From an uncultured Nitrososphaeria archaeon (GTDB taxonomy: Archaea > Thermoproteota > Nitrososphaeria > Geothermarchaeales > JDFR-13), in contig CAZGXJ010000004.1 of the NCBI GenBank assembly GCA_964529905.1, positions 1-61,943 of the forward strand: a stretch of 61,943 nucleotides of DNA, written 5' to 3'. Under the pieces are notes generated by a model. The model ran no database searches. It was not told the origin of the DNA and saw only the letters and a program-made list of their open reading frames with translations. The position numbers and the translations under genes are program-made. Of the stretch, positions 5,207-11,765 are shown piece by piece; the stretch's first letter is position 1; each line of letters opens with the position of its first letter.

Positions 5207-5863
5207 CTATATTTTCCATTTCTCCATGTTATACGCCATATCCCAAAACAGATATTCATATTTACTTCCCAAAAGAAAGATTTTCCTATATTTTTCATAG
5301 TAAGTCCCGTCCCATAGATCGTCAACAGTCTCTCTAAGTCTCTGTACTATATCCCTATATTCTTCTTTTAGATATACCTCTGCCCACTCTCTATAGAGCC
5401 TCACCTTGTTTTGAAGGAGTAGGGATTTATTATTCTCAGCTATCTCGAGATAGCTCCAGAAGCATGGGAGAATCGCTACTAAACCCTCCAATAATGTACC
5501 AGTGGCACATGTCGAGAGTAGGAAGTCCATATATGCCCTATTCGTTGGAGCTGGTTCTCTCCCGATGACATCCTCAATATTTAGGTTTAGAGACTCCAAA
5601 AGCTTTTTATAGTTATCCATCTCTATCGATGCATCTATATAGGCCATCTCCAGAATAAATCTAGCTATATCAGGCTCCGCCTTTGAGGCTAGAAGGCTTA
5701 GGCATTTATACATAGTGACTAGATAGTTATAGTCTTGAACCGCATAAAACTTAAATTTTTCTAGGGGGAGAGACCCGGAGTATAGCTCTAAGACGAATGG
5801 ATGGCTAAAAATCTTATCCCATATATCCGATGCATCCATCCTAAGTCTTTGGGATAGAGTCAC
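5207..5863 (-). CDS. tenA: Thiaminase II / TenA
   Basis: HPFV.EL..GSLP.EKF.FY..QD..YL and LPCFWSY (catalytic Cys), KYEYLFWDMAY. Confidence 0.93.
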   Translation of the reverse strand: MTLSQRLRMDASDIWDKIFSHPFVLELYSGSLPLEKFKFYAVQDYNYLVTMYKCLSLLASKAEPDIARFILEMAYIDASIEMDNYKKLLESLNLNIEDVIGREPAPTNRAYMDFLLSTCATGTLLEGLVAILPCFWSYLEIAENNKSLLLQNKVRLYREWAEVYLKEEYRDIVQRLRETVDDLWDGTYYEKYRKIFLLGSKYEYLFWDMAYNMEKWKI

Positions 5864-5870
5864 TTGATAT

Positions 5871-6443
5871 CTACCTCCTCACATATTCAGCAACTATAGA
5901 TGCTAAACCTCCATATATCGCTCCACTTATCATAGCTGCTAAAAGCCATAGAGCCATAACCTCTACAGTAGCTATATCCTCAAACAGGATAGCGTCTAAG
6001 ACGATTGCTCCCGGTGCAGCCGCTAGACCTGCTAAAGCACCTGTTATATAGTCAAATCTCCTATATCCGAAGACCAGATATATTAATTCAGAGAGGAGGC
6101 CTTGGATAACACCATACATTAGATTAGTTAGTCCACCTACTGTAGGTATTATCGTCTCGATTAATGCCCCTAATGTCTCACCTAGGAAGGCTGAAAAGGG
6201 CTTCTTAATAAGGGTAGCCCCTAGAGGAGCGCCTATAAACCATAAACCATATGAGATTAGCCTAGCAAATATCGGTCCTCCTATAGCTTTTCCAAAGTAA
6301 TATACATACCATGTTCCATAGAATACTACTCCCATTACAACAGCTACTACTCCTAGATATGCATAGTCGATGGTTGTGTATCTAAACCCGCCTCCCCTCA
6401 TAACCCCATAACGAGATATAAATATATTATCTTGAAAACTCAA
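5871..6443 (-). CDS. ECF transporter S component (YkoE-like, thiamine/HMP precursor)
   Basis: Six-TM protein with GLWF, KKPFSAFLGE, QGLLSEL motifs; sits between EcfT and tenA. Confidence 0.85.
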   Translation of the reverse strand: MSFQDNIFISRYGVMRGGGFRYTTIDYAYLGVVAVVMGVVFYGTWYVYYFGKAIGGPIFARLISYGLWFIGAPLGATLIKKPFSAFLGETLGALIETIIPTVGGLTNLMYGVIQGLLSELIYLVFGYRRFDYITGALAGLAAAPGAIVLDAILFEDIATVEVMALWLLAAMISGAIYGGLASIVAEYVRR

Positions 6444-6473
6444 TACATATACTTCTGAGAATCGATATTTACA

Positions 6474-7202
6474 TTATATAGAAATCCTGGGTAGTATACC
6501 GATGGATATGGCGATAGGTATCATTACCTGAATAATCATTATTAGAATCACTATATAATCATAACGTGATAGTTTAATGGGTTCATGGAGCCTCCTCCTA
6601 ATGTTGAAGCCCCTCAACTCAACCGCAATACCTGTCCAGTAAGCCTTATCCAATAAATTAGATAGTAGAGGTAGAAGGAAGGTCGAGAAATCTCTCGGTG
6701 TAATTATATATCCCCTATATCCCCTCTCCCTCCTAATAAACCTAAGATCCCTATATATCCTATCCACCAGTGGGAGAAGTCTTAATGCATAATATATGGA
6801 GAAGGTAGGTCCTTTGGGAAGCCTCAAATCGTTTTCAAGTGTCCTAACAGTCTCTAGAGGATCTGATAGGGATAGAAATATAAGTGTTCCACCAGTAATC
6901 AATCCAAGCCTAAAGAATATGGAGTTAGCTGCCTTCAAGGCCCCCTCCCTAACCACTAAAAACAAGAATTTGAAGACTACAGCACCTTGATTAGCCACCA
7001 GGAGAGAGTTGATGAATAGACCAATGTATCCTAGGATAAAGAGAAAGATAATAATTTTATATCGCCTCCACCCAAGTATAATTCCGATAGCTAGATTTGG
7101 GATTGCGATTATAAATATGGAGGAGGACTCCCTAAATATAAATGCTAGAAGAGTGATAACCAATCCATATATAAAGAGGATTGACGGCCTAATCCTAGGC
7201 AT
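6474..7202 (-). CDS. ECF transporter transmembrane T component (EcfT/CbiQ family)
   Basis: TM N-terminus, ALRLLP, and late ELRGF (X-R-X) motif. Confidence 0.85.
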   Translation of the reverse strand: MPRIRPSILFIYGLVITLLAFIFRESSSIFIIAIPNLAIGIILGWRRYKIIIFLFILGYIGLFINSLLVANQGAVVFKFLFLVVREGALKAANSIFFRLGLITGGTLIFLSLSDPLETVRTLENDLRLPKGPTFSIYYALRLLPLVDRIYRDLRFIRRERGYRGYIITPRDFSTFLLPLLSNLLDKAYWTGIAVELRGFNIRRRLHEPIKLSRYDYIVILIMIIQVMIPIAISIGILPRISI

Positions 7203-8571
7203 TTCTCCATACCTCTAGGTATGACAAGGCATATTCAATATCAACCTCTTTGAAACCCTTATCGAATAGATATACCCTATCACATACATCCAGTAAAATC
7301 CTTGGGTCATGGGTCGCTATCAGAATCCCCCTCCCATCTCTGGCCAACCTATCTATCTGGCTAACTATCCATCTATACATGTTTAGATCGAGCCCTGTAG
7401 TGGGCTCATCCAATAGCAATATATCACTTCCATATATACCCCCGATAAGATTAGCCAACCATCTTCTCTGCCCATGGCTAAGTCTAAATGGGTTATATCC
7501 AAGTGATATCCCGAATTCCTTAAGATATTCTAAATATTTCCCAATATCCCCTCCAACCTTCCTAATCGATTCTACAACCTCCTTCTCAACACTCTTAAAC
7601 ATAAACATCAGGTCTGGCTCCTGGGGAACATAGAATATGGATCCATTAACCTTTAAAGAACCGTCAATTGGTTTGATATATCCAGATAAAGTCTTTAATA
7701 GTGTAGACTTCCCAGATCCATTCCTACCCACTATACATACAACTTCGCCTCTAGCTAGTCTAAAAGATATGTTTTCAATTATTGGTACGCTATAACCGAT
7801 AGATAATCCTTCGACCTCTAAGAGATCTTCACCAACAGCTCTACCACCAAAAAGGAATCTCTTTCTCAGTTCAGTCTCTAAGTCTACCATATCAAAGAAA
7901 TCCTTTGAGGGGGGAGATTCATATATCTTACCATTAAATAAGAAATATGTCTTATCCACTAAATCTATAAAATATCTGGCCTTATGTTCAACCAATATAA
8001 CCGTCTTCCTCCCCTTAAGGCTACCTATAAAATCCCTTACAGTCTTTATACCCCAGGGATCCATAGAGGCGGATGGTTCATCAAGTATAATTATATCTGG
8101 GTCATGTATAATTGCCGAAGCTATTGTAAGTCTCCTCCTCTCACCTATAGATAGATTCTCAACATATTCAAAATACTTCCCCTTTAAACCTATCCAATCA
8201 ATAACCTCCATAGCTCTATCCACATCCCTAACACCATATATATTCTCCAATGTGAATAGAACCTCATCTAATACCCTAGGCATAGCGATCTGCTTCTCAG
8301 GATCTTGTAGAACTATACCAATCTCCTTAGGTATGTTTATATAGTCCACTTGATCCAGGGGATTTAGCCCATTAATATCTATCGATCCATCCACATATCC
8401 ACCGACTAGATTTGGGATCACACCTAATATTGATAATAATAAAGTAGTCTTACCAGACCCAGATGGACCAGTTATTAAGATCGATTCCCCAGCATCTATA
8501 TCTATTGATATATCCATTAAGACAGACCTACCTATTTGATAACCAGCATCCTTAATATCGATATCTATCAT
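7195..8571 (-). CDS. ECF transporter double ABC ATPase (YkoD-like)
   Basis: Two Walker A (GPSGSGKT, GRNGSGKS), signatures LSIGE and LSHGQ, two Walker B (ILDEP, LLDEP). Confidence 0.92.
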   Translation of the reverse strand: MIDIDIKDAGYQIGRSVLMDISIDIDAGESILITGPSGSGKTTLLLSILGVIPNLVGGYVDGSIDINGLNPLDQVDYINIPKEIGIVLQDPEKQIAMPRVLDEVLFTLENIYGVRDVDRAMEVIDWIGLKGKYFEYVENLSIGERRRLTIASAIIHDPDIIILDEPSASMDPWGIKTVRDFIGSLKGRKTVILVEHKARYFIDLVDKTYFLFNGKIYESPPSKDFFDMVDLETELRKRFLFGGRAVGEDLLEVEGLSIGYSVPIIENISFRLARGEVVCIVGRNGSGKSTLLKTLSGYIKPIDGSLKVNGSIFYVPQEPDLMFMFKSVEKEVVESIRKVGGDIGKYLEYLKEFGISLGYNPFRLSHGQRRWLANLIGGIYGSDILLLDEPTTGLDLNMYRWIVSQIDRLARDGRGILIATHDPRILLDVCDRVYLFDKGFKEVDIEYALSYLEVWRNA

Positions 8572-8572
8572 C

Positions 8573-9574
8573 TCAGTTTTTCCCTAATCTATATCCATCC
8601 ATTTCGTATATATACCTAGATGCAAACTCCTCAATAGAAGATATGTAGGGTATTAATTCTTCATATCGATCCCTCCTAACATAAAGCTCGAATGTCTCCC
8701 ATCTAATCTCTAGAAATTTAAACCCATTAACCTTAGCTTCATAATATGTCCCTATCATCACATCAGATAGACCATCTTTTATAGATCTTAGGGCCTCCAC
8801 ATGGCTATAGTATTCCATTCCATATCCATTTATCCTCCCCCTAAGATCATCTAGGTCTAGGCCTGATGTCTCAGCATATCTAATCAACTCTTCCTCCAGA
8901 TATATCCGAGAGCCTGAACCCCAAACCCTATTAGCCAATCTATATCCCCTCTTTATTAAATCCTCTACACCGTTGAAATCTATATCGCCTCTATATATCC
9001 AGCCAATCAATCTGTCATACCTAAATACATCCATCAATAGATTTTTAACTCCAAATAACTCTATTACCTCATTAGCCCCTGATAAATGTATAGATGCTAT
9101 ATCTCCATCGCCGATCAACACCTTAAATAGACCTATTAGACTACCTATAGCCCTATATTCCACATTTATTTTCAACTCACCACCCATGTACCTCGAGACC
9201 TTTCTAAGGAGTGGGTCATCGCTTCCAACAATTCTAAATGTAGGAGGAGATATATTTATGGAATCCAGATCTATATGTGGTTTGAGTGCTCTAATCAACT
9301 CAGATAGAATCCTTCTCCCATCATCCGTTAATGATATACCTCCTCTTCCCCTAACAAATCTAAATAGCTTGACCTGGAGCATCTCCTCAAGCCTCCTTAT
9401 ATATTCCCATGCCCTTGAATAGGGTATCCCCGTTATCTTAGAGGAGGTATATAGGCTATACCCCTCCAACATCCTTGAAATTAGGTATATCCCCCTAATA
9501 TCCAGGGCTCTCCTATCCCCAATATATATGACTGGCTCTAAACGTATATTTACACCATATTTACCTAGGTTCAT
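8573..9574 (-). CDS. ModE-type HTH fused to PBP-like oxyanion-binding domain (molybdate/tungstate-responsive regulator)
   Basis: N-terminal SLYTSSKITGIPYSRAWEYIRRLEE...RGRGG.SLT ModE/LysR HTH; C-terminal GSD.LL, GSL.GL, NR..GSGSR PBP motifs; divergent from tupA. Confidence 0.82.
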   Translation of the reverse strand: MNLGKYGVNIRLEPVIYIGDRRALDIRGIYLISRMLEGYSLYTSSKITGIPYSRAWEYIRRLEEMLQVKLFRFVRGRGGISLTDDGRRILSELIRALKPHIDLDSINISPPTFRIVGSDDPLLRKVSRYMGGELKINVEYRAIGSLIGLFKVLIGDGDIASIHLSGANEVIELFGVKNLLMDVFRYDRLIGWIYRGDIDFNGVEDLIKRGYRLANRVWGSGSRIYLEEELIRYAETSGLDLDDLRGRINGYGMEYYSHVEALRSIKDGLSDVMIGTYYEAKVNGFKFLEIRWETFELYVRRDRYEELIPYISSIEEFASRYIYEMDGYRLGKN

Positions 9575-9577
9575 ATA

Positions 9578-9611
9578 AAGATTAATTATCCGAATTCGGA
9601 TAATTAATCTT
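9578..9611. promoter_or_regulatory. Perfect 34-bp palindrome, candidate operator/bidirectional promoter
   Basis: AAGATTAATTATCCGAA-TTCGGATAATTAATCTT is its own reverse complement; each end lies 3 nt from a divergent start codon. Confidence 0.75.
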
Positions 9612-9614
9612 ATA

Positions 9615-10511
9615 ATGAATAGGTATGCTGGACTCGGGATATATAAATTAATTGTTTTAGCCGTAACGGTAGTGATCTTACTTGGGATATTCTACTACAT
9701 AGGTTATGGGAGGAGAGAGGTTAGGATAGCCACGACCACCTCTCTATATAATACTGGGCTTCTAGACTTTATAGTCGATAGTTTTAGGGAGAGGTATCCA
9801 GAGATAGATGTGAAGATCCTACCCCTAGGAAGTGGAGCCGCTTTGGAGACTGGTAGTAGGGGGGATGCAGACTTGGTTCTTGTACATGCACCTAAGCTTG
9901 AGAAGAGCTATATAGATATGGGTATATTGACGGCTCATAGGATAATAGCATATAATTACTTCATATTAGTAGGTCCTAAGGATGACCCTGCAAACGTAAG
10001 TAATCAAGAGTCTATAATTGACGCTTTTAAAGTGATTTATACGGCTGGGTCAATGGGTAAGGCCTACTTCATAAGTAGAGGAGATAGAAGTGGGACACAT
10101 ATCAAGGAACTCTCTATATGGTCTAAAATAGGGATAAAGCCGTCGGGAGAATGGTATATAGAAAGTGGGAGTGGAATGGCACAGACATTGATCATAGCCA
10201 ATGAGAAGGGGGGCTATACCTTATCAGATATTGGGACATACATAGCTTTAAAGGAGAATGGGAGGATAGATAATCTCGTAATACTATATAGTGGAGATGA
10301 TGAATTAATAAACATATATAGTATCTATCTCGTAAATCCAGAGAAAGTTGCTGGAGTAAATTATGGAGATGCATATATCCTATATAAATTCATAATCGAT
10401 AACATTAGGTATTTTATAGAGGAGTATAATTCTAAATACTCGGTTAAACTGTTCTACCCAGCCGATAATGAAGATATCCTTATGGATAAATGGTGGATGC
10501 TGGCGGGATGA
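9615..10511 (+). CDS. tupA: Tungstate ABC transporter substrate-binding protein
   Basis: N-terminal TM anchor; ATTTSLYNTGLL (TTTS TupA motif), LVHAP, FISRGD.SGTH, YTLSD.GTY. Confidence 0.92.
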   Translation: MNRYAGLGIYKLIVLAVTVVILLGIFYYIGYGRREVRIATTTSLYNTGLLDFIVDSFRERYPEIDVKILPLGSGAALETGSRGDADLVLVHAPKLEKSYIDMGILTAHRIIAYNYFILVGPKDDPANVSNQESIIDAFKVIYTAGSMGKAYFISRGDRSGTHIKELSIWSKIGIKPSGEWYIESGSGMAQTLIIANEKGGYTLSDIGTYIALKENGRIDNLVILYSGDDELINIYSIYLVNPEKVAGVNYGDAYILYKFIIDNIRYFIEEYNSKYSVKLFYPADNEDILMDKWWMLAG

Positions 10512-11154
10512 TACCATGCCATATGAAATATGGGATATAGCTATTAGAAGCATCTTCATCTCAGGATCAGCATCGATATTGGCCACTACATGGTCAATCC
10601 CCCTTGGCATATATCTAGGGATAACCAACAATAATCTATCTAGGATTGTGATATCCATTATAAATATCCTTATAGGTATACCCACGGTATTAATTGGTCT
10701 AATACTATACCTAATATTATCTAGAACCGGTCCACTCGGTTTCCTAAACCTATTATATACTCCATATGCCATGATCATCGGCCAGAGCATACTGGTAACA
10801 CCCCTTGTAATTTCCTTTGTATATGAGGTAGTAGCGGGGAAGTCGATCGACCTGATAGAGATGTTGAGGACATTTAACGCATCTAGAGGAGAGATGATTA
10901 AGATATTATATGAGGAATACGAGGATAGGATGTGGGGATCCGCCGTCATAGGATTCGAGAGAGCGTTAGGTGAGTTGGGTATAGCCCTCATGCTAGGGGG
11001 AAATATTAGAGGAGTGACGCGCGTATTTACAACGACAATAGCGTTAGAGGTTCAAAAAGGTATGTATGAATTAGCTATAGAATTAGGTGTAATACTACTA
11101 ATCCTCGACCTACTATTAGTATCTATAATACGTATACTAGGCTGGAGAAGATGA
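10468..11154 (+). CDS. tupB: Tungstate ABC transporter permease; likely start ATG 10516
   Basis: SRTGPLG.LNLLYTP.AMIIGQ, GF.RA..E.G.A.MLGGNIRG.TRV.TT.IALE motifs. Confidence 0.92.
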   Translation: MKISLWINGGCWRDDTMPYEIWDIAIRSIFISGSASILATTWSIPLGIYLGITNNNLSRIVISIINILIGIPTVLIGLILYLILSRTGPLGFLNLLYTPYAMIIGQSILVTPLVISFVYEVVAGKSIDLIEMLRTFNASRGEMIKILYEEYEDRMWGSAVIGFERALGELGIALMLGGNIRGVTRVFTTTIALEVQKGMYELAIELGVILLILDLLLVSIIRILGWRR

Positions 11155-11765
11155 TAGAGCTTATAAATGTTTCATTTAAATATACGGATAAGCTGGTTAT
11201 AAAAGATGTATCTGTAAAATGGGGCAGTGGATTACACCTGATTAAGGGTCCCAACGGTTCAGGTAAAACGACTATTTGTAAAATAATATCAGGTTTATTA
11301 CCTCCCGACAGGGGGTATGTATATATAGATGGGGTCGATGTATATAGTGGTGAATCGTCTAAAATATTGAAGGATGTAGTATATGTACATGACAAACCCG
11401 TAATTCTCAATAGGTCCGTATATGACAACCTTATCCTTGGTGCTAGACTACTAAAGAGGAATGTAAATAGGCTTAAAAATCTAGTAGAGTTTTTTGGACT
11501 ATATGATATACTAGATATAAATGCTTCTGAGTTATCAGCCGGATATAAACAGTTGATAAGTCTCTCAAGAGCATTTATAGTGAGACCGAGATATCTAATC
11601 CTAGATGAGCCATTCACAAATCTAGATACGAAGTTTAGGGATAAGGTTATTGAATATATTGTCAAGGAGTATAGGGAGAATACGGTTATAGTCGCTACAC
11701 ACACTACATATCTAGATAGATATGCAGATACAATTAGAAAAATTCATAAGGGTAAACTTGTCTAA
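11151..11765 (+). CDS. tupC: Tungstate ABC transporter ATPase
   Basis: GPNGSGKT, LSAG, LILDEP, ATH; operonic with tupAB. Confidence 0.85.
   Translation: MIELINVSFKYTDKLVIKDVSVKWGSGLHLIKGPNGSGKTTICKIISGLLPPDRGYVYIDGVDVYSGESSKILKDVVYVHDKPVILNRSVYDNLILGARLLKRNVNRLKNLVEFFGLYDILDINASELSAGYKQLISLSRAFIVRPRYLILDEPFTNLDTKFRDKVIEYIVKEYRENTVIVATHTTYLDRYADTIRKIHKGKLV

Follow-up and report, generated by a model that had tools for sequence, protein, structure and literature searches.

A perfect palindrome between a ModE-type regulator gene and tupA in an uncultured Nitrososphaeria archaeon and its most likely role as an operator

What can a space of 40 nt between two divergent genes accommodate when most of it is a perfect inverted repeat? 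The question is raised by a locus in contig CAZGXJ010000004.1 (assembly GCA_964529905.1) of an uncultured Nitrososphaeria archaeon, analysed here within a window of 61,943 nucleotides. A regulator gene for a protein of 333 amino acids (8573..9574, minus strand; ModE-type winged helix-turn-helix (HTH) predicted, with a sensor domain of the periplasmic-binding-protein (PBP)-like family PF12727) faces tupA (9615..10511, plus strand), the gene for a predicted tungstate-binding protein that begins with a membrane anchor and contains a TTTS motif. The junction at 9572-9617 reads CAT (9572-9574), ATA, AAGATTAATTATCCGAATTCGGATAATTAATCTT, ATA and ATG (9615-9617); the spacer (9575-9614) contains, at 9578..9611 and with no strand of its own, a palindrome of 34 bp that is composed of 17+17 bases with zero mismatches and no loop. 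Sequence comparison makes this palindrome most likely the predicted operator of a regulator type that joins a ModE head to a PBP sensor and is apparently widespread in archaea. The best explanation as a whole, to which we assign a probability of about 0.7, is that the core of the palindrome represents the operator of the adjacent regulator, superimposed on two divergent, near-leaderless promoters and used for repression.

The palindrome is confirmed as real. A sequence-only reading of the locus had described it as perfect and loop-free, and direct inspection bears this out: it occurs once in the 719,222-bp, 41-contig assembly and is the longest loop-free palindrome found there, the runner-up having 11-nt arms (22 bp). 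The number of palindromes with arms of at least 17 nt to be expected from base composition is 1.3e-4, and the maximum arm in 20 local shuffles of the genome was 8-11. An inverted-repeat search extends the symmetry to a near-palindrome at 9570..9619, whose 25-nt arms (9570-9594 and 9595-9619; 88%) include the start codon of each gene and the first bases of the Asn codon that follows it. One hydrothermal-vent DNA run (X1) contains all sampled words of the window, and the Logan contigs of this metagenome, the product of a second assembler that was compared in place of the raw reads, recover 9300-9607 and 9582-9900 with 0 differences. These contigs end only at palindromic k-mers, as expected of a de Bruijn assembler. 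X1 is probably the source sample of the assembly, and the agreement thus tests the assembler, not the biology. Chimeric reads can yield perfect palindromes, depth is only about 5-7x and the Logan contigs do break at the palindrome; yet an assembly or amplification artefact is highly improbable, given that the flanks are two different genes without fold-back, that the second assembler arrives at identical junctions, that the core discussed below is conserved across families, and that a homologous compact spacer of 42 nt with the same left arm is present at a metagenomic locus (L039) of a different sample, whose separate origin argues against an artefact. Equally improbable is a structural element, such as a cruciform or a recombination site, that has no regulatory role. 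The DNA hairpin has -14.4 kcal/mol at 37 °C, its stem is 80% A+T and a link to supercoiling is not evident; the proposal that the palindrome could extrude as a cruciform finds no support. Reverse gyrase gave no match above the cut-off in the incomplete assembly.

Comparison with relatives singles out the inner 20 bp. This operator core, ATTATCCG-AATT-CGGATAAT at 9585..9604 (no strand; half-sites 9585-9592 and 9597-9604), was searched for as TTATCCG-N4-CGGATAA with at most one mismatch in 14 genomes of the family, G000 being the genome under study. It is present once per genome in G000 and in five family-level relatives, the Geothermarchaeota-type MAGs (metagenome-assembled genomes) G007, G008, G011, G012 and G013, at a distance of 10-42 nt upstream of tupA in every case; the eight other family genomes gave one match, in G003 with 1 mismatch, from a genome-wide count that leaves it unplaced relative to tupA. 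G007, G011 and G013 have ATTATCCG-ATAA-CGGATAAT 34-40 nt before the tupA ATG, and G008 and G012 have the same core 41-42 nt before it. In the latter two, a gene other than the regulator is divergent to tupA (hisD in G008, where the regulator lies 5.7 kb from tupA), and the site is still found at tupA; it therefore follows tupA, not the regulator gene. Four genomes of the same genus (G001-G004), together with G005, have a tupA of 51-55% identity, without an orthologue of the regulator and without the site upstream of tupA. The only regulator-like protein in these five is a 650-aa fusion of MoeA and PBP, and in G001 and G004 tupA directly faces the ykoD-like ATPase gene, across spacers of 46 nt and 86 nt. 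Presence and absence of regulator and site agree in 11 of the 11 family genomes that have tupA. The comparison of orthologous spacers proposed along with the sequence-only reading thus shows the core to be kept upstream of tupA in relatives. The claim of an operator gains strong comparative support, the core standing upstream of tupA and being gone where the regulator is gone; conservation, however, is limited to the inner 20 bp of the palindrome.

The outer 7+7 bp of the palindrome are specific to the G000 lineage. Two closer regulators were found in metagenomes, at L039 (53% identical) and L040 (44%). The 42-nt spacer of L039 reads CAT-ATTAAGATTAATTATCTAGATCCGGATAATTAAGTTGATATA-ATG; its left arm is that of G000 through AAGATTAATTATC, its left half-site is degenerate (ATTATCTA, with TA in place of CG), and symmetry is limited to 12 of 17 arm positions. 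In L040, whose spacer measures 49 nt, the tupA ATG comes 8 nt after ATTATCCG-GAAA-CGGATAAT. From the compact spacer of L039, combined with its unsymmetric arms, it follows that compaction is older than G000 and the perfect symmetry G000's own. In G000, the right flank (TAATCTTA) matches, base for base, the reverse complement of the left flank common to G000 and L039, and the right flank of L039 shows several substitutions and 2 extra bases relative to G000. We hypothesize a single template-switch correction of a quasi-palindrome, which would account for the perfect symmetry in G000.

Beyond the family, a locus search with the single regulator sequence returned no related loci, and a TupA alignment was used in its place. 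The scan covered 80 tupA loci, in MAGs labelled Desulfurococcales, Pyrodictiaceae, Acidilobaceae, Thermofilaceae, Nitrososphaeria and others. The motif GTTATC-N8-GATAAC, of which the G000 core reads as a local variant (ATTATC...GATAAT), is found no more than 200 nt upstream of tupA in 34/80 loci when 1 mismatch in 12 is allowed and in 48/80 when 2 are allowed, the chance expectation being about 4e-4 per locus by our own estimate. The loci that carry it belong to MAGs labelled Desulfurococcales, Pyrodictiaceae, Acidilobaceae and Nitrososphaeria, plus one Asgard; many heat-loving archaea thus keep a predicted binding site of this kind ahead of their tungstate-uptake genes. In 26 loci tupA has the regulator as its divergent neighbour, with spacers of 40 nt (G000, the shortest), 42 nt (L039) and then 59-197 nt.

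Two layouts recur at these promoters. In class I (20 loci, G000 included), a gap of 2-9 nt, in most cases 3-6 nt, separates the end of a TATA box from the operator, and the start codon comes 1-16 nt downstream of the latter, often with a GGTG/GGGG Shine-Dalgarno-like run in between. In class II (28 loci), the operator is immediately followed by the TATA box (GATAAC-GATAAATA), and the start codon is 30-67 nt away, with one exception. The bound protein would thus come to lie between TATA box and start site in class I and over the B recognition element (BRE) in class II, and the archaeal repressors MDR1, LrpA and Phr act from such positions. Alternatively, the same regulator could use the same operator for activation, with the apo- or tungstate-bound dimer recruiting transcription factor B (TFB) and TATA-binding protein (TBP): the class II site abuts the upstream side of the TATA box, and the archaeal regulators TrmBL1/Tgr and Ptr2 activate from a position upstream of TATA. 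We regard activation as distinctly unlikely, since in G000 and the 19 other class I loci the site is placed between TATA box and start codon, where polymerase is blocked, since the class II site covers the BRE itself instead of leaving it free, and since both ModE and the uptake logic of metal importers are repressive.

The sequence-only reading had set the palindrome apart from the E. coli ModE box, which is half right. ModE boxes used for comparison were TATAT-N7-TAYAT of E. coli and the archaeal RTTATGT-N8-RCATAAY, a 22-bp site that ModE of M. acetivorans binds and represses from (PMC12327845). The outer RTTAT...ATAAY is common to this Methanosarcina motif and the present site, which is 2 bp shorter (20 bp, not 22 bp) and has CCG/CGG as its inner bases instead of GT/AC. 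In G023 and G035, which are relatives at class level, tupA is preceded by a third form, CGTTATGA-N7-TCATAGCG, whose outer G and C have 21 bp between them. This form stands directly before the ATG in both (L048:1325-1352 in G023, L047:1329-1356 in G035) and is nearer to the classical ModE boxes; the gene for the ModE-HTH/PBP regulator in these two genomes comes after tupABC and has the same orientation. Lineages apparently differ in operator length (20, 21 and 22 bp). In all forms, (R)TTAT is kept at a distance of roughly 9-10 bp from the dyad, and the G000 site therefore appears as a diverged ModE-type box, not as an unrelated element.

The predicted binding partner is the adjacent regulator. 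The regulator ATG was assigned because upstream of a conserved RLEP motif the sequence offers no alternative start codon. PF12727 matches residues 135-306 (Pfam, E 5.6e-22). Taken as a single sequence, the regulator shows a weak HTH match (HTH_1 25.3 vs a cut-off of 26.6; TIGR00637 23.3 vs 98.5) and no match to PF12728 (HTH_17). An exhaustive homologue search collected 409 cluster representatives (E <=1e-3), 110 of which have E <=1e-10, the best homologues mostly being 330-370 aa long. In the family alignment A2, made from 53 of the homologues, PF12727 is present in 53/53 and HTH_1 in 52/53. The A2 profile (positions 8-109) matches the N-domains of ModE (2ijl, 1b9m, 1o7l) at 4.8e-19 to 4.3e-18 and LysR regulators at about 1e-6; by this profile comparison, the DNA-binding domain is assigned to the ModE type. 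No Mop/TOBE domain was found in the regulator or in any of the 53 homologues. PF03466 (LysR_substrate) was absent above threshold from the regulator and weak in 7/53 homologues. The AlphaFold model (mean predicted local distance difference test, pLDDT, 93) combines a winged HTH and a linker helix with a binding-protein fold of two lobes. Its best Foldseek matches are full-length LysR-type regulators (E about 1e-12; template-modelling score, TM, 0.36-0.47), and its C-terminal part is similar to the molybdate-binding protein 4kd5. We picture the regulator as a homodimeric ModE-type winged-helix protein with PF12727 as a cytoplasmic oxyanion-binding sensor. Responsiveness to tungstate is suggested by two things, the PF12727 domain and the TupA context.

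The regulator thereby combines features of three known systems. With ModE of E. coli and M. acetivorans it shares the homologous N-terminal winged-helix domain for DNA binding and dimerization (E about 1e-18) and, by prediction, responsiveness to oxyanions and a palindromic operator at transporter promoters; it differs in having the PF12727 PBP-like domain in place of Mop/TOBE. A PF12727 PBP-like sensor is known from TunR of sulfate-reducing bacteria. The same family serves as sensor in the bacterial tungstate regulator TaoR, whose HTH is HTH_17 (PMC11980592). Control of tungstate/molybdate transport genes, predicted here, is a further likeness to TaoR and TunR, both from sulfate-reducing bacteria, whereas the HTH there is of the excisionase/MerR type (HTH_17) as opposed to HTH_1/ModE here, and those regulators are bacterial, not archaeal; P0005, a protein with HTH_17 and PF12727, is 28% identical over 60% of the regulator query. 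The modelled arrangement of winged HTH, linker helix and two-lobed PBP-type effector domain recalls LysR-type transcriptional regulators (LTTRs). LTTR tetramers, however, occupy a long T-N11-A operator array, as compared to the compact 20-bp dyad here, the resemblance in fold is no more than moderate, at a TM of 0.36-0.47, and PF03466 is not present above threshold. In the searchable literature we found no account of this archaeal ModE-head/PBP regulator family or of its operator. It is conceivable that the site serves another transcription factor, the adjacency of the regulator being a coincidence, for many motif-bearing tupA loci lack a regulator gene within 2.5 kb, and that of G008 is remote, as described. 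The presence-absence match throughout the family genomes with tupA, the ModE-type HTH and the resemblance of the motif to a proven ModE site leave this explanation with little probability.

How two promoters could be fitted to the site is suggested by its geometry. The operator spans -30..-11 of both ATGs, which are 41 bp apart. The tupA start codon is fixed by homology, the N-terminus MNR... aligning with that of orthologues; a downstream start (GTG, codon 20) was rejected since the conserved membrane anchor would be lost. With no alternative start in either gene, each promoter has to lie in the arm that is farther from its gene. The sequence-only reading had pointed to a mirror-image element near each ATG, correctly so: TTAATTAT at 9582..9589 (plus strand, -33..-26 from the ATG) overlaps the left half-site and is a candidate TATA box of tupA in a leaderless register, and its mirror at 9600..9607 (minus strand), overlapping the right half-site, would by symmetry be that of the regulator. 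TATA-like hexamers peak at -27..-30 from ATGs genome-wide (424 upstream regions), and TTAAATAA occupies the same -33..-26 position in G011; the TTAATTAT register accordingly fits a leaderless mRNA. An alternative tupA TATA box, ATATAAAG at 9573..9580 (plus strand), is separated from the operator by 4 nt and overlaps the regulator start codon. Its counterpart by symmetry, ATTATAAG at 9609..9616 (minus strand), overlaps the tupA start codon. The ATATAAAG register would give a leader of about 11 nt and agrees with the class I layout. The symmetric bidirectional leaderless promoter that had been proposed for the spacer is plausible by its geometry, namely the distance of 41 bp and the TATA position; the second register, for its part, fits the layout in relatives. 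A shared central TATA box was rejected as a model: the centre is CCGAATTCGG, and starts at +/-26 would fall within both coding sequences (CDSs). A scan for sigma-70 promoters and terminators was set aside as uninformative for an archaeon.

Compactness as such is not peculiar to this locus. Divergent pairs with spacers of 35-51 nt account for 16 of 102 in the genome by crude open-reading-frame (ORF) calls, and the compact spacers inspected have 57-86% A+T and no dyad symmetry, with 3-11 of about 20 positions matching vs 17/20 here. Short spacers being common in the genome, compact interleaved promoters are ordinary here, and the symmetry is the operator's addition. Examples of compact divergent spacers are C4:48805-48843, C22:6893-6933, C24:6076-6117 and C13:3486-3523. 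They often have TATA-like boxes touching the opposite start codon (CAT-ATAAA), a junction that recurs in another compact spacer besides the present one. The small genome seems to make general use of minimal, interleaved divergent promoters.

Were transcription to start further upstream, within the opposite gene in each case, the 5' leaders of the two mRNAs would each contain the palindrome as an RNA hairpin, which could control translation or stability. TATA-like boxes do exist in both CDSs (TATATTTA around 9545-9552 and, on the minus strand, TTTATATA around 9640-9647), and the folding of the strand, at -14.4 kcal/mol, has a z of -6. Very little probability attaches to this explanation, however, because conservation concerns two half-sites in the DNA around a variable N4 and not a stem; because the class II site, lying upstream of TATA, would not be transcribed; because Rfam gave no match, the Moco riboswitch included; and because TATA positions genome-wide favour leaderless mRNAs.

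The preferred explanation, repression through a shared operator, can be put as a sequence of steps. The inner 20 bp (9585-9604) would be the operator of the adjacent regulator, and with the control region compacted to 40 nt, two divergent promoters would be laid over this one operator. TATA box and BRE of each gene would be located in the distal arm (9573-9589 for tupA, 9600-9616 for the regulator), and transcripts would start at the ATG or within about 12 nt upstream of it. A dimer on the core would cover the region from TATA to start in both promoters and so block TBP/TFB or RNA polymerase. When tungstate is plentiful, tupABC would be repressed together with, by autoregulation, the regulator operon including its ykoDCE/tenA genes, which are possibly co-repressed; a single bound dimer extending over both promoters would shut off tupABC and the regulator operon at the same time. 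The symmetry of the outer 7+7 bp probably reflects double duty of each arm, as promoter of the far gene and 5' end of the near one, and may have been perfected by the template switch invoked above. The ligand would be tungstate rather than molybdate.

Several points weigh against this explanation. L039, the closest relative, has a degenerate half-site, and strict dyad symmetry is thus not required. The class II operator is upstream of TATA and over the BRE, from where some archaeal factors activate, so the sign of regulation is not secure. The gene calls beneath the spacer and TATA-position counts are crude ORF calls. And a client for tungstate is not visible: the AOR family (PF01314) and MoeA (MoeA_N, PF03453) were not found in the incomplete 719-kb assembly, where one frame of the molybdopterin-oxidoreductase type (PF00384) is present at C7:27399-27695. 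Same-genus genomes have 1.1-1.3 Mb, and from the smaller size of the assembly missing genes are likely; the completeness estimate of 84% may be generous. In favour of the explanation, on the other hand, the site stands alone in the genome. In a regulon search with the core, along the lines suggested with the sequence-only reading, G000 has no second site with up to 2 mismatches, and up to 4 mismatches give one real site and otherwise noise. In the 14 family genomes, RTTATC-N8-GATAAY is no commoner than a reversed-pattern control.

Regarding other bidirectional promoters of archaea, the main class in P. furiosus and T. kodakarensis uses one central BRE-TATA-BRE, with starts 49-52 bp apart, and a minor T. 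kodakarensis class has divergent starts 36 bp apart. The present spacer resembles them in directing, by prediction, two divergent transcripts from one short, symmetric, A+T-rich region and is nearer to the 36-bp class. It differs by its centre, CCGAATTCGG, and by ATGs 41 bp apart, which imply two interleaved TATA boxes, and by the whole unit also being an operator. A regulator's site(s) common to two opposed promoters are seen, too, in halobacterial gvp PA/PD, for which promoters 35 nt apart with overlapping GvpE binding sequences are described (PMC2241852). GvpE is an activator that binds upstream of both BREs in back-to-back arrangement, unlike the present site, which overlaps the core promoters.

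The circuit itself, consisting of a metal importer, a divergent autoregulated repressor and a palindromic operator, is of a known kind and otherwise expected. The importance of the locus, along with about 50 related loci, lies in providing a testable pair of ModE-head/PBP-sensor regulator and 20-bp operator, in two promoter layouts that both predict repression. G000 is the most compact case, with two promoters and one operator in 40 bases, and its spacer offers a handy natural template for studying promoter occlusion in vitro, or the competition between opposed pre-initiation complexes. A more far-reaching interpretation, which we consider doubtful, is that of a minimal, fully mirror-symmetric switch in which two complete promoters are interleaved to the point that the TATA box of each gene extends to the start codon of the other, pre-initiation complexes in the two orientations are mutually exclusive, one tungstate-sensing dimer gates both, and the symmetry arose in one template-switch step by which one promoter was copied onto the other. 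The searchable literature contained nothing on tungsten sensing in archaea, tungstoenzyme-dependent hyperthermophiles included; if true, and with a wider GTTATC-N8-GATAAC regulon, such a switch would be the first defined sensor and cis-element of tungsten homeostasis in Archaea.

As to the genes on both sides, TupA matches PBP_like_2 at 4e-32, and its best NCBIfam match is the TupA model, with 177 below the equivalog cut-off of 400; the TTTS motif is invariant in an alignment of 6 TupA orthologues. By domain matches, tupA is followed on the plus strand by genes for the permease TupB (10468..11154) and the ATPase TupC (11151..11765), in the order A-B-C as for TupABC transporters. With the match below the cut-off, specificity for tungstate over molybdate is a presumed property of this TupA. 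On the minus strand, the regulator stop is 1 nt from the ATG of the gene for a ykoD-like double ATPase (7195-8571), which is followed by genes for a CbiQ-type T component (6474-7202) and a PF09819 S component (5871-6443) and by tenA (5207-5863). This set, 5207..8571, lies directly downstream and probably shares the leftward regulator promoter; an internal promoter is possible, based on the TATA-like GTATATATAC at about 8604-8613, within the 3' end of the regulator gene. The gene order is the same in L039 (L039:2270-6637). The set may serve salvage or import of a thiamine precursor and be co-transcribed from the tungstate-regulated promoter.

Lastly, some minor observations concern inverted and repeated elements elsewhere. 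The next-longest perfect palindromes of the genome, candidate operators of other regulators, are located at C13:959-980 (22 bp, ATGGAAGACATATGTCTTCCAT), C1:54621-54640, C2:68071-68090 and C11:7013-7032 (20 bp each; TTTACCGTTATAACGGTAAA, AGAGATATTTAAATATCTCT and TTTGCAAAAATTTTTGCAAA). Within the regulator CDS, a perfect 13-nt inverted repeat, ATATACCTCCTCT / AGAGGAGGTATAT, is formed by 9334-9346 and 9440-9452, with arms 93 nt apart, and three direct repeats of the TATCCCC type occur at 9425-9527. In the Desulfurococcales loci L077, L101, L078 and L087, half-sites upstream of tupA are overlapping or in tandem, e.g. GTTATCCGTTATCGGTTATCCGATAAC, and the overlapping half-sites at some tup promoters suggest more than one dimer or a choice of register. 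An exact Geothermarchaeota-type site, ATTATCCGATAACGGATAAT, is found 6 nt before tupA in a MAG labelled Promethearchaeati (Asgard; L114:1631-1650), either by horizontal transfer of the locus or by a binning error.

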